Shown one piece after another: positions 50,838-56,894 of a stretch of DNA of 64,000 bases (positions within the stretch are counted from its first letter, which is position 1; every line of letters begins with the position of its first letter). A program made the translations under genes and the position numbers. Origin of the DNA: Escherichia coli (lineage in GTDB: Bacteria > Pseudomonadota > Gammaproteobacteria > Enterobacterales > Enterobacteriaceae); assembly GCF_003991155.1 (NCBI RefSeq), contig NZ_CP031294.1; one strand, given 5' to 3'. The notes under the pieces are model-generated. The model saw only the letters and a list, made by a program, of their open reading frames with translations. It searched no databases and had not been told where the DNA came from.

Positions 50838-52400
50838 ATGAAAATGACAAGTATTCAACAACGTGCAGAGCTTCATCGCCAGATCTGGCAAATTGCTAAC
50901 GATGTCAGGGGTTCAGTCGATGGATGGGATTTTAAGCAGTACGTTTTGGGCGCGCTTTTTTACCGTTTTATCAGCGAAAATTTTTCCAGTTATATTGAAG
51001 CCGGTGATGACAGTATCTGTTATGCGAAACTGGATGACAGCGTAATTACTGATGACATTAAAGACGATGCCATCAAAACTAAAGGCTACTTCATCTACCC
51101 CAGTCAGCTTTTCTGCAACGTAGCTGCGAAAGCAAATACTAATGACAGACTGAATGCAGATTTAAACAGCATCTTCGTTGCTATCGAAAGTTCTGCTTAC
51201 GGTTATCCTTCAGAAGCTGACATCAAAGGTTTGTTTGCTGATTTCGATACCACCAGTAACCGCCTGGGTAACACCGTTAAAGATAAAAATGCCCGCTTGG
51301 CTGCGGTTCTGAAAGGGGTTGAAGGGCTAAAACTTGGTGACTTCCATGAACATCAGATTGACCTGTTCGGTGACGCCTATGAGTTCCTGATTTCTAACTA
51401 TGCGGCGAATGCCGGTAAGTCCGGCGGCGAGTTCTTTACACCGCAGCACGTCTCTAAGCTGATTGCACAACTGGCTATGCACGGGCAGACCCACGTTAAC
51501 AAAATCTACGACCCGGCAGCAGGCTCCGGTTCGCTGTTGTTGCAGGCGAAAAAACAGTTTGATGACCATATCATCGAAGAAGGTTTTTTTGGTCAGGAAA
51601 TCAACCATACGACCTATAACCTGGCGCGTATGAACATGTTTTTGCACAACATCAACTACGACAAGTTTGATATCAAGCTGGGTAATACACTGACTGAGCC
51701 GCACTTCAGAGATGAAAAACCGTTTGATGCCATCGTTTCTAACCCGCCGTATTCGGTGAAATGGATTGGCAGCGATGACCCGACGCTGATTAACGATGAA
51801 CGTTTTGCCCCGGCTGGCGTTCTGGCCCCCAAATCCAAAGCTGACTTTGCGTTTGTATTACATGCGCTGAACTATCTTTCGGCCAAAGGTCGCGCTGCGA
51901 TTGTCTGCTTCCCAGGCATTTTTTACCGTGGCGGCGCGGAGCAGAAAATCCGTCAGTATCTGGTCGACAATAACTATGTCGAAACCGTGATTTCACTGGC
52001 ACCGAATCTGTTCTTTGGCACCACTATTGCCGTCAATATTCTGGTGCTGTCTAAACATAAAACGGATACCAAAGTTCAGTTTATTGATGCCAGCGAACTG
52101 TTCAAAAAAGAGACTAACAACAACATTCTGACCGATGCTCATATCGAACAGATTATGCAGGTATTTGCCAGCAAGGAAGATGTTGCTCATCTGGCGAAAT
52201 CTGTTGCGTTTGAGACTGTTGTCGCGAATGACTATAACCTGTCGGTGAGCAGCTATGTGGAAGCGAAAGATACTCGCGAAATTATCGATATCGCTGAGCT
52301 GAATGCTGAGCTGAAAACCACGGTCAGCAAAATCGACCAGTTGCGTAAAGATATTGATGCGATTGTTGCTGAGATTGAAGGTAGCGAGGTACAGGCATGA
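50838..52400 (+). CDS. hsdM: type I R-M methyltransferase subunit, type IC (EcoR124 family)
   Basis: 520 aa. [25 protein letters not shown]..., SAM motif DPAAGSGS, catalytic NPPYS. Essentially EcoR124I HsdM from memory. Confidence 0.95.
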
Positions 52401-53656
52401 GCGAGCTGAGTTATCTGGAAAAACTGCTGGATGGGGCTGAGGTTGAGTGGGTAGCATTAAATAAATTAGCAACTTTTTTAAAAGGGAAGTCTTTACCTAA
52501 AGAAAAAATAACTCCAGATGGCAATAGATATTGTATTCATTACGGTGAGCTTTTCACTCATTATGGTCCCATAATTGACAAAGTATGCTCAAAAACAAAC
52601 CAAGCAATCAATGAGTCAATTCTATCTGAAAAAAATGATGTTCTAATGCCAACGTCAGACGTTACACCAAGAGGTTTGGCTACAGCTAGTTGCATTCAAG
52701 AAAGTGGCGTTATTTTAGGCGGCGATATTTTGATTATTAGATGCTCTGGTGTTGATGGTAGATATCTAAGTAATTTCATAATAAATAACAAAAAAAAGAT
52801 ATTGCAAATGGTTAAAGGTTCTACTGTTTATCATTTGTATGCTAAAGATATAGGTAAATTACTTATCCCCATCCCTTGCCCCAACAACCCGGAAAAGTCG
52901 CTGGCTATCCAGTCTGAAATCGTCAGGATTCTGGATAAATTTACTGCACTTACCGCTGAGCTTACCGCTGAGCTTACCGCTGAGCTTAGCATGCGTAAAA
53001 AACAATACAACTACTATCGCGACCAGTTGTTGAGTTTTAAAGAGGGTGAGGTTGAGTGGAAAGCTTTGGGGGAAATTGGTGAAGTTCGTATGTGTAAACG
53101 AATCCTAAAATCACAAACATCTTCTGAGGGAGAGATTCCATTTTATAAAATTGGGACATTTGGTAAGGAACCCGATTCCTATATATCTAGAAAACTATTT
53201 AATGAATTTAAAGAAAAATATAGTTATCCTAAAGTTGGCGAAGTATTGATTTCTGCCAGTGGGACCATCGGCAGGACTGTTATATTTGATGGTAGGGAAT
53301 CATATTTCCAGGATAGCAATATTGTCTGGATTGAAAATAATGAAAAAATAGTTTTAAATAAATATTTATTCTATTTCTATAAAATAGCAAAATGGGGAAT
53401 ATCTGAAGGTGGAACTATTAAAAGACTTTATAATGATAACTTAAGAAAACTTATGATACCAGTACCATTTCCTGATTCTCCTGAAAGATCGCTAGTTGAA
53501 CAACAAAAAATAGTGAAATTACTGGATAAATTTGATGCTTTGACCAATTCCATCACCGAAGGTCTTCCGCGTGAAATCGAGTTGCGCCAGAAACAATACG
53601 AGTACTATCGTGATTTACTGTTCAGTTTTCCCAAACCTGAAACTATCAGTAACTAA
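52397..53656 (+). CDS. hsdS: type IC specificity subunit with novel TRDs and three TAEL repeats
   Basis: 419 aa, ATGA overlap with hsdM. Conserved EcoR124-type regions ([38 protein letters not shown]..., [17 protein letters not shown]) flank two AT-rich variable domains. Confidence 0.95.
52952..52987 (+). repeat. 3 x 12-bp in-frame tandem repeat ACCGCTGAGCTT (TAEL)3 in the HsdS central spacer
   Basis: Three perfect direct copies, in frame (codon 186 onward). Confidence 0.95.
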
Positions 53657-53777: not shown

Positions 53778-56700
53778 ATGACTCATCAGACACACACCAT
53801 TGCTGAATCCAATAACTTTATCGTTCTTGATAAGTACATCAAAGCCGAGCAAACAGGCGACAGCTACCAGAGCGAATCGGACCTGGAACGTGAACTGATT
53901 CAGGATCTGCGGAATCAGGGCTATGAATTTATTTCCGTAAAATCTCAGTCGGCGATGCTGGCCAACGTTCGGGAACAGCTTCAGAGCCTCAATGGTGTGA
54001 TGTTTAATGACAGCGAGTGGCGGCGCTTCACGGAGCAGTATCTGGACAACCCCAGCGATGGTATTCTGGATAAAACCCGTAAAATCCATATCGACTATAT
54101 CTGCGACTTTATTTTTGACGACGGGCGACTTGAGAACATCTATTTGATAGATAAAAAGAATCTCATGCGCAATAAGGTGCAGATTATCCAGCAGTTTGAA
54201 CAGACGGGTTCTCATGCTAACCGTTATGACGTCACGATCCTGGTTAATGGTTTACCGCTGGTGCAAATCGAACTAAAAAAACGCGGGGTGGCGATTCGTG
54301 AGGCTTTCAACCAGATACATCGTTACAGTAAAGAGAGTTTTAACAGCGAAAATTCCCTGTTTAAGTATCTGCAACTGTTTGTCATTTCTAACGGCACCGA
54401 TACCCGTTATTTTGCCAACACGACAAAGCGCGATAAAAACAGTTTTGACTTCACCATGAATTGGGCGAAATCAGACAACACGCTGATTAAAGACCTCAAA
54501 GACTTTACCGCTACCTTTTTCCAGAAACATACTCTGCTGAATGTTCTGGTGAACTACAGCGTTTTTGACAGTAGTCAGACGCTACTGGTGATGCGACCGT
54601 ACCAGATTGCCGCCACCGAGCGCATTCTGTGGAAAATTAAGAGTTCCTTTACAGCGAAGAACTGGTCAAAACCGGAAAGCGGTGGGTATATCTGGCATAC
54701 TACCGGTTCTGGTAAAACCCTCACCAGCTTTAAAGCCGCGCGTCTGGCAACAGAGCTGGACTTTATTGATAAAGTCTTCTTTGTGGTCGACAGGAAAGAC
54801 CTCGATTACCAGACCATGAAGGAATATCAGCGTTTTTCGCCAGACAGCGTCAACGGCTCGGAAAATACCGCAGGCCTTAAACGAAATCTGGATAAGGACG
54901 ATAACAAAATTATCGTCACTACTATTCAGAAACTCAATAACCTGATGAAAGCAGAAAGCGACCTGCCTGTATATAATCAGCAAGTGGTGTTTATATTTGA
55001 TGAATGCCACCGCAGCCAGTTTGGAGAAGCGCAGAAAAACCTGAAGAAGAAATTCAAACGCTATTATCAGTTTGGTTTTACCGGCACCCCTATTTTCCCG
55101 GAAAACGCTTTAGGCTCAGAAACGACCGCCAGCGTATTTGGTCGTGAATTGCATTCGTATGTAATTACCGATGCGATTCGTGATGAAAAAGTGCTCAAAT
55201 TCAAGGTGGACTACAACGATGTGCGGCCACAGTTTAAATCTTTAGAGACAGAAACCGACGAGAAAAAACTGAGTGCGGCTGAAAATCAGCAGGCATTTCT
55301 TCATCCCATGCGTATACAGGAAATTACGCAATATATTCTGAATAACTTCCGCCAGAAGACCCACCGTACTTTCCCAGGTTCCAAAGGCTTTAATGCCATG
55401 CTGGCAGTGAGTAGCGTGGATGCCGCGAAAGCCTATTACGCGACGTTTAAACGGTTACAAGAGGAAGCAGCTAATAAATCGGCTACCTATAAACCGCTGC
55501 GTGTTGCAACAATCTTCTCCTTTGCCGCCAATGAAGAACAAAATGCCATTGGTGAAATTTCCGATGAAACTTTTGATACCAGCGCAATGGACAGCAGTGC
55601 TAAAGAGTTTCTTGACGCTGCAATTCGTGAGTATAACAGCTATTTTAAAACTAACTTCAGCACCGACAGTAACGGTTTTCAGAACTACTATCGTGATTTA
55701 GCCCAACGGGTTAAAAATCAGGATATCGATCTGTTAATTGTCGTTGGGATGTTTTTAACCGGCTTCGACGCTCCAACATTGAACACGCTATTCGTCGATA
55801 AAAACTTGCGTTTTCACGGCCTGATGCAGGCATTCTCCCGTACCAACCGCATTTATGACGCTACTAAAACCTTCGGTAACATCGTCACTTTTCGGGATCT
55901 GGAACGCTCAACCATTGATGCCATAACGCTGTTTGGTGATAAAAATACTAAAAATGTGGTGTTAGAAAAGAGTTATGCTGAGTATATGGAAGGCTTTACA
56001 GATGCTGCCACTGGTGAAGCTAAACGCGGCTTTATGGCAGTAGTTTCAGAACTGGAACAACGGTTCCCTGACCCTGCCAGTATTGAAAGTGAAAAACAGA
56101 AGAAAGACTTCGTAAAACTGTTTGGTGAATACCTGCGTGCCGAGAACATCCTGCAAAACTATGATGAATTTGCCACGCTGAAAGCCCTGCAACAAATCGA
56201 TCTTAGCGATCCTGTTGCGGTAGAAAAATTCAAAGCAGAACATTATGTGGATGATGAAAAGTTCGCTGAATTGCAAACAATTCGTCTCCCTGCTGAACGC
56301 AAGATTCAGGATTATCGTTCTGCCTATAACGATATTCGCGACTGGCAGCGCCGTGAGAAAGAAGCTGAGAAAAAAGAGAAATCAACCACTGACTGGGATG
56401 ACGTAGTTTTTGAGGTCGATTTGCTGAAGTCTCAGGAAATAAACCTGGATTATATCCTTGGACTGATTTTCGAACACAACAGACAAAATAAAGGCAAGGG
56501 CGAAATGATCGAAGAGGTCAAACGCTTAATTCGTTCAAGCCTGGGGAACCGGGCGAAAGAGGGCCTGGTGGTCGATTTTATTCAGCAAACGAACCTGGAT
56601 GATTTACCAGACAAAGCCAGTATCATTGAGGCATTCTTTACGTTTGCTCAACGCGAACAGCAACGTGAAGCAGAAGCATTGATAAAAGAAGAAAATCTCA

Positions 56701-56894
56701 ATGAAGAGGCGGCGAAACGCTATATTCGCACGTCTTTAAAACGCGAATACGCCACCGAAAATGGCACAGAATTAAACGAGACATTACCAAAACTTAGTCC
56801 GTTAAACCCGCAATATAAAACGAAAAAACAGACCGTTTTCCAGAAAATCGTCACGTTTATTGAAAAGTTCAAAGGAGTAGGTGGGCAGATATAG
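53778..56894 (+). CDS. hsdR: type IC restriction/translocase subunit
   Basis: 1038 aa. Motor motifs TTGSGKT and FDECHRS. Has its own promoter region after a 121-bp gap, as in EcoR124. Confidence 0.95.

Follow-up and report, generated by a model that had tools for sequence, protein, structure and literature searches.

The 64,000-bp stretch of Escherichia coli DNA analysed here (contig NZ_CP031294.1 of assembly GCF_003991155.1; hereafter, the window) carries on its plus strand a three-gene type I restriction–modification (R-M) operon, which appears to be accessory cargo of an SSU5-like phage-plasmid. The operon consists of hsdM (positions 50838–52400; 520 amino acids), encoding the type IC N6-methyladenine methyltransferase subunit, hsdS (52397–53656; 419 amino acids), encoding the specificity subunit, and hsdR (53778–56894; 1038 amino acids), encoding the motor and endonuclease subunit. 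All three open reading frames are intact and have exactly the limits given in a preliminary description of the sequence. The hsdM and hsdS genes share a 4-bp ATGA overlap, through which hsdS is translationally coupled to hsdM, and a 121-bp gap precedes hsdR; the gene order hsdM-hsdS-hsdR, with hsdS overlapping hsdM and hsdR set apart, is the type IC arrangement. HsdM is identical to the EcoR124 M protein (PDB 7BST) at 514 of 519 aligned residues (99.0%), and HsdR aligns with EcoR124 HsdR (PDB 2W00) at 2274 bits and carries 16 differences over the displayed alignment of its first 1010 residues (approximately 98.4% identity), both proteins having the same lengths as their EcoR124 counterparts. 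The near-identity to EcoR124, which the preliminary description had asserted, is thus borne out by alignment. The DPAAGSG (S-adenosylmethionine-binding) and NPPY motifs were seen in the HsdM alignment, and the D...ELK nuclease, GSGKT and DECH motifs in that of HsdR. Pfam matches comprise N6_Mtase and HsdM_N in HsdM, HSDR_N, SWI2_SNF2, T1R_D3-like and EcoR124_C in HsdR, and two Methylase_S domains in HsdS, which is also covered over its full length by the PADLOC profile Specificity_I (PDLC03077); PADLOC and Pfam both place all three proteins in type I R-M. Membership in the type IC family is defined by complementation, antibody cross-reaction and sequence, of which the sequence criterion was applied here, and by every such criterion checked this is an intact type IC (EcoR124-family) R-M operon.

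The layout of HsdS follows the type IC architecture, that is, a short conserved N-terminus, a first target recognition domain (TRD1), a central helix with TAEL repeats, a second target recognition domain (TRD2) and a conserved C-terminus. As had been noted beforehand, similarity to the EcoR124 S subunit is confined to the three conserved regions. The N-terminal segment (52397–52450), part of the dimerisation helix D2, aligns with residues 1–28 of EcoR124 S and shows 94% DNA identity to the hsdS allele of plasmid pIP1206; the central region (52865–53082), corresponding to helix D1 and holding the repeats, aligns with the central region of EcoR124 S and is 92% identical to pIP1206; and the C-terminal segment (53446–53656), contributing to helix D2, aligns with the EcoR124 S C-terminus and is 80% identical to pIP1206. 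Between these lie TRD1 (52451–52864) and TRD2 (53083–53445), neither of which has DNA homology to pIP1206 hsdS, the allele by which the domain limits were set. The bounds proposed earlier were about right, except that the end of TRD2, which falls near 53445–53482, had been placed at 53530, about 50–85 bp too far. Both domains are AT-rich, with GC contents of 0.318 in TRD1 (residues 20–152; 52454–52852) and 0.312 in TRD2 (residues 225–362; 53069–53482), compared with 0.458 in hsdM, 0.440 in hsdR and 0.46 in the whole window, and both differ from the EcoR124 TRDs, in keeping with the initial impression. Within the central region, three perfect ACCGCTGAGCTT units (52952–52987, plus strand) encode (TAEL)3 at HsdS residues 186–197. 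Tandem Repeats Finder reports the array at 52949–52988, with a period of 12, 3.3 copies and 100% matches, which confirms the array noted in the preliminary description. By our own estimate, a 12-mer would be joined by two additional exact copies with a probability of 4^-24 at any one position, which amounts to about 2e-10 for the whole 64-kb window. The same unit appears as that of EcoR124 in a mutagenesis primer from the literature (PMC10644984).

The preliminary description had regarded the two TRDs as novel, a claim that did not survive a survey of their distribution. We dissected, region by region, the 120 best matches from a search of 5.8 billion protein clusters. Among the matches listed, TRD1 at 100% identity is joined to at least eight different other TRD2s and TRD2 at 99%–100% identity to at least 12 different other TRD1s, and the two TRDs of a Methylophaga protein are 68% and 81% identical to those of the window. 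The same pair was counted in 39 of 5426 complete E. coli genomes, where plasmids as well as chromosomes carry it, and in 31 PLSDB plasmids. Among the 39 genomes, hsdS has the two-repeat length in 35 and the three-repeat length in three, the remaining allele being 1244 bp long. The exact two-repeat protein, WP_001293038.1 (415 amino acids), is present on at least 1000 contigs in a collection of 15 billion proteins, and the three-repeat protein is the RefSeq entry WP_094310829.1, found on plasmids AP022163.1 (IncY), CP097183.1 and MG904996.1. A fourth three-repeat copy, CP029421.1, is disrupted by IS1; at this locus (NZ_CP029421.1, 3401–5437) the insertion lies just 5' of the repeats and leaves a 187-amino-acid fragment with TRD1 only. 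The TRDs are, consequently, widely shuffled modules of E. coli type IC HsdS proteins, and their novelty as sequences is unsupported. As for what they recognise, both are unrelated to the TRDs of pIP1206 HsdS, the sole type IC allele with a retrievable published motif; each TRD alone gave only chance matches against all PDB sequences at E values up to 10, no solved S subunit resembling them; and literature searches by accessions, pECOH89, E. coli methylomes and EcoR124 with sequencing by SMRT (single-molecule real-time) technology returned no recognition motif for this HsdS. REBASE is likely to hold data for the allele already, because the two-repeat form sits in isolate AR_0137 and REBASE has a motif for another isolate of the AR series, AR_0067. 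A target of about seven specified bases is expected a few times per 64 kb, which gives site avoidance in the element too little power to reveal the target.

Repeat number varies between relatives that are otherwise nearly identical. Across 24.9 kb shared by the window and plasmid OW849379.1 (isolate 162), the differences are three single-nucleotide polymorphisms (SNPs), one 12-bp TAEL unit (three units in the window, two in OW849379.1) and one 7-bp unit at 57371. In the 17.3 kb compared between pYUSHP31-2 (three repeats) and pYUSHP6-3 (two repeats), three SNPs, an indel of 1 bp and, again, this 12-bp unit make up the differences. MG904996.1 and CP029421.1 (three repeats) lie 0–1 SNP from D4 plasmid A (two repeats) in the 6.1-kb hsdMSR module. 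When this module from ten sources was aligned, three haplotypes were found to hold both two- and three-repeat members 0–1 SNP apart, namely the window with OW849379.1, MG904996.1 and CP029421.1 with D4 plasmid A, and CP097183.1 with CP073770.1, the three haplotypes being 52–180 SNPs apart from one another; for a fourth three-repeat haplotype, AP022163.1, a close two-repeat partner is absent from the ten-source sample. The central helix thus contains repeated, identical 12-bp units, and natural variants were observed that differ in copy number alone, which supports the earlier suggestion that the repeat is a mutable setter of length; a repeat invariant among reads and relatives had been named as evidence against it. 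Repeat number aside, hsdS genes with this TRD pair are 100% identical even where the accompanying hsdM/hsdR sequences are 52–180 SNPs apart per 6.1 kb, and this suggests that the hsdS allele has been exchanged by recombination within the conserved flanks. The pattern is most economically read as one unit having been gained independently, at least three times, by the abundant two-repeat form.

Gapped DNA pattern scans for one to four repeats recovered four extra loci in the metagenome and IMG/VR collections, all with two repeats, and no loci in the GTDB collection; exact look-ups of constructed proteins with zero, one, four and five repeats gave no record. In an evenly spaced sample of 60 of the 1234 E. 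coli records that contain a type IC central region, two- and three-repeat alleles were about equally frequent. Three repeats are thus common in the type IC family and rare for the TRD pair of the window. The longest array that we saw, with five TAEL repeats, belongs to a type IC hsdS pseudogene cut by ISEc45 on the chromosome of E. coli JA0072 (NZ_CP070227.1, locus 324–1082).

In this family, as is established, the M2S complex modifies a single adenine in each of the two halves of a bipartite target by methylation, and the R2M2S complex translocates DNA from unmodified targets and then cuts it. Each variable domain of HsdS reads one half-site, and the length of the helix between them, which is set by the TAEL repeats, fixes the distance between the half-sites. 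The repeat lies in helix D1; the two-repeat EcoR124I recognises GAA N6 RTCG and the three-repeat EcoR124II recognises GAA N7 RTCG, the distance between the methylated adenines being set by the repeat number at 7 nt with two units and 8 nt with three (PMC3874165). The same source tabulates an interval of 7 between methylated bases for EcoR124I and of 8 for EcoDXXI, EcoprrI and NgoAV, describes EcoDXXI and EcoprrI as likewise three-repeat enzymes, and reports that the gap of EcoR124/EcoDXXI hybrids shifted exactly as predicted (PMC3874165); the repeat-spacing rule has also been described elsewhere (PMC10644984). The HsdS of pIP1206, which carries three TAEL repeats, belongs to a system recognising CCAG N6 RTTG (preprint 10.1101/2020.06.07.138552), a motif that would correspond to an interval of 8 if the methylated position is the first T of RTTG, as in EcoDXXI. 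Because the written gap in pIP1206 is N6 despite its three repeats, what can safely be predicted for the window is 8 nt between methylated adenines, one more than in the two-repeat parent, and not specifically N7; the N7-type spacer proposed in the preliminary description is only approximate. The extra 12-bp unit would have arisen recently and more than once, by slippage or unequal crossing-over. Because the three-repeat derivative keeps the TRDs of the two-repeat allele, its HsdS would read the same two half-sites at a spacing greater by 1 bp, the methylated adenines being separated by 8 nt instead of 7, and its specificity would accordingly differ from that of the parent.

The carrier of the operon was assigned from its backbone. 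Over its first 25 kb, the window shares 97.9% identity with Escherichia phage Cyrano and 80.7% with Salmonella phage SSU5, and the nearest plasmids are approximately 110-kb non-mobilisable IncFIB elements of the pECOH89 type, by which the element is best classified as an SSU5-like phage-plasmid of E. coli. The match to Cyrano breaks off at 50183 and begins again at 56956, and the intervening cargo segment (50184–56955), comprising hot and hsdMSR, replaces approximately 5.9 kb of other genes in the otherwise 98% identical Cyrano, which has Ea22-like, Eaa-like and Eae-like genes and a 561-amino-acid DUF4942 gene at this locus. Within the cargo, hot (50234–50485, minus strand) encodes a homologue of the DNA polymerase III theta subunit (Pfam DNA_pol3_theta, E = 2e-31), and the humD-like S24 peptidase gene (49746–50135, minus strand; Pfam Peptidase_S24), also present in Cyrano, is part of the flanking backbone, so that the association of the R-M system with hot and humD in a phage-like element was correctly perceived at the outset. 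The right scar of the replacement is an open reading frame for a 136-amino-acid remnant of the DUF4942 N-terminus (56953–57363, minus strand), 96% identical to residues 23–158 of the 561-amino-acid Cyrano protein. Directly upstream of the ATG of this minus-strand frame, at 57371–57397, is a 7-bp tandem repeat (CGATAGT, 3.9 copies) with one unit more than in OW849379.1. Homologues of the housekeeping genes metG (methionyl-tRNA synthetase) and apbC/mrp are also found on the phage-plasmid (46418–49709), as well as in Cyrano and related plasmids.

A P1-like element was considered and rejected, the backbone being SSU5-like, although this operon is also found next to phd-doc in P1-like phages; in phage vB_EcoM-673R5, for instance, it lies between phd-doc and pmgS. 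On the pIP1206 and pYUSHP plasmids, the operon is likewise found beside phd-doc, inside an IS1-bounded transposon, and the pYUSHP context corresponds to a Tn6602-like segment with the order IS1-mmuMP-IS5-pdcB-doc-phd-hsdMSR-IS1-CBASS (cyclic-oligonucleotide-based antiphage signalling system). The Tn6602-like segments of pYUSHP31-2, pYUSHP6-3 and pIP1206 combine P1-derived pdcB-doc-phd with a CBASS-like pair (SMODS nucleotidyltransferase and S-4TM effector), and different hsdS alleles fill the same frame in these three plasmids. R-M and PrrC systems on phage-plasmids of the SSU5 and P1 groups have already been reported in a recent survey.

Taken together, these observations favour, with a probability that we put at about 0.8, an intact type IC operon carried as accessory cargo on an SSU5-like phage-plasmid, whose HsdS derives, through the gain of a third repeat, from a two-repeat allele that is very common and whose operon's repeat number has changed recently and more than once. 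Several points weigh against this. The activity and recognition sequence of the system are inferred. A promoter and terminator scan yielded nothing above chance, with 10 promoter sites compared with 13.4 expected from shuffled sequence; for the separate hsdR promoter that is characteristic of the type IC family, one consensus-like site before hsdR (53684–53713) comes from this same scan with no excess over shuffled sequence. A single origin of the three-repeat allele followed by short-patch recombination would be a possible, less economical source of the pattern, because hsdS is identical on all backgrounds. The exact three-repeat protein has no record in the collection of 15 billion proteins, and the form, being rare for this TRD pair, could be a mildly deleterious product of slippage. 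In its stronger version, the latter idea holds that the allele is non-adaptive and perhaps impaired, the TRD pair working properly with two repeats only and three-repeat carriers being transient. The low counts speak for it, with three repeats in just three of the 39 complete genomes, two repeats at all four extra metagenome and viral loci, at least 1000 contigs for the two-repeat protein in the collection that lacks the three-repeat one, and a three-repeat copy broken by IS1. We nevertheless consider it unlikely, given that three repeats occur with four hsdM/hsdR haplotypes, in all of which the hsdM and hsdR frames are full-length, that about half of the E. coli type IC alleles in the even sample have three repeats, and that EcoR124II, EcoDXXI, EcoprrI and the EcoR124/EcoDXXI hybrids are active with three (PMC3874165). 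That the extra unit is an artefact of sequencing or assembly is hardly credible: poor assemblies can miscount tandem repeats and nothing more specific can be said for such an error, whereas the 36-bp array fits well inside single reads and an identical three-repeat hsdS is present on four independently assembled plasmids.

With respect to function, the expected and plausible role of the operon is that of a barrier to unmodified incoming phage and plasmid DNA, which fits its place in a variable cargo slot. Its suggested additional role as an addiction module, in the form that the operon serves mainly to stabilise the phage-plasmid through post-segregational killing rather than in defence, draws on its carriage by a low-copy extrachromosomal element and on the fact that P1-like relatives and Tn6602-like transposons have it as the immediate neighbour of the phd-doc addiction pair. 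We regard this as quite improbable as the main function. Relatives of the element have dedicated maintenance functions, phage Cyrano has unrelated cargo at the same locus, and type I systems have been reported not to resist loss. The restriction alleviation displayed by EcoR124I (PMC3874165) also argues against strong post-segregational killing, and such alleviation would, we suppose, keep a cell alive after a change of spacer, even though the new target is then unmodified in its own chromosome. Still further from our expectations is a chiefly epigenetic, phasevarion-like role, in which the change from two to three repeats would alter the methylome and gene expression of the host rather than restriction. 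Switching of type I specificity via repeats has been proposed as a regulator (PMC7383803), but three E. coli type I systems were reported to be without influence on host gene regulation (PMC8287963), and a 12-bp repeat of two or three copies should change far less rapidly than simple-sequence contingency loci of the classical kind. A defensive accessory operon with a recently altered spacer is the reading that we retain. Somewhat short of even odds, and hence tentatively, we further propose that the TAEL repeat is a naturally recurring specificity switch on phage-plasmids and transposons of wild E. coli, whereby this TRD pair would have gone from two repeats to three in separate events on several backbones, within a divergence of a few SNPs, each event creating a possibly uncatalogued specificity and changing which DNA the carrier excludes.

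The system itself is ordinary: its mechanism is textbook, the allele is already in public databases, and it is at most a variant, of uncatalogued specificity, in a class that is very well known. The modest added value lies in the population evidence, in the form of three near-isogenic pairs, that the EcoR124I/II-type spacer switch, first described for plasmid R124, is recurrent and very recent in natural phage-plasmids and transposons. Near-isogenic pairs, such as SH21PTE31 (CP097183.1, three repeats) and SH19PTE6 (CP073770.1, two repeats), are well suited for measuring the effect of one TAEL unit on the methylome and on the restriction barrier between otherwise identical mobile elements.

Among known systems, the type IC prototype EcoR124I/EcoR124II of plasmid R124 (PDB 7BST and 2W00) shares with the window the gene order, nearly identical HsdM (99.0%) and HsdR (approximately 98.4%), the conserved HsdS segments and the 12-bp ACCGCTGAGCTT/TAEL unit, which in EcoR124II is present in three copies, as in the window. 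By contrast, both EcoR124 TRDs are unrelated to those described here, so that the half-sites of the window's enzyme are predicted not to be GAA and RTCG, and the carrier of EcoR124 is a conjugative plasmid rather than an SSU5-like phage-plasmid. The type IC enzymes EcoDXXI and EcoprrI, compared here on points other than TRD sequence, have N7 gaps, three TAEL repeats like the window and a methylation interval of 8 (PMC3874165); EcoprrI differs in having prrC inside its operon, a gene that the operon of the window lacks. RM.EcoST101IX/Eco067II of pIP1206 (Tn6602), with the target CCAG N6 RTTG, is likewise a type IC system with three TAEL repeats, and its flanks (phd-doc, IS1 and CBASS) are those of the pYUSHP plasmids bearing the hsdS allele of the window; both of its TRDs differ from those of the window, and it demonstrates that three repeats can be paired with a written gap of N6. 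The two-repeat allele WP_001293038.1, found for example on OW849379.1, D4 plasmid A and the AR_0137 chromosome, encodes the protein of the window minus one TAEL unit. In OW849379.1 it resides on the same phage-plasmid backbone, three SNPs away in 24.9 kb, and its predicted target consists of the same half-sites placed 1 bp closer together.

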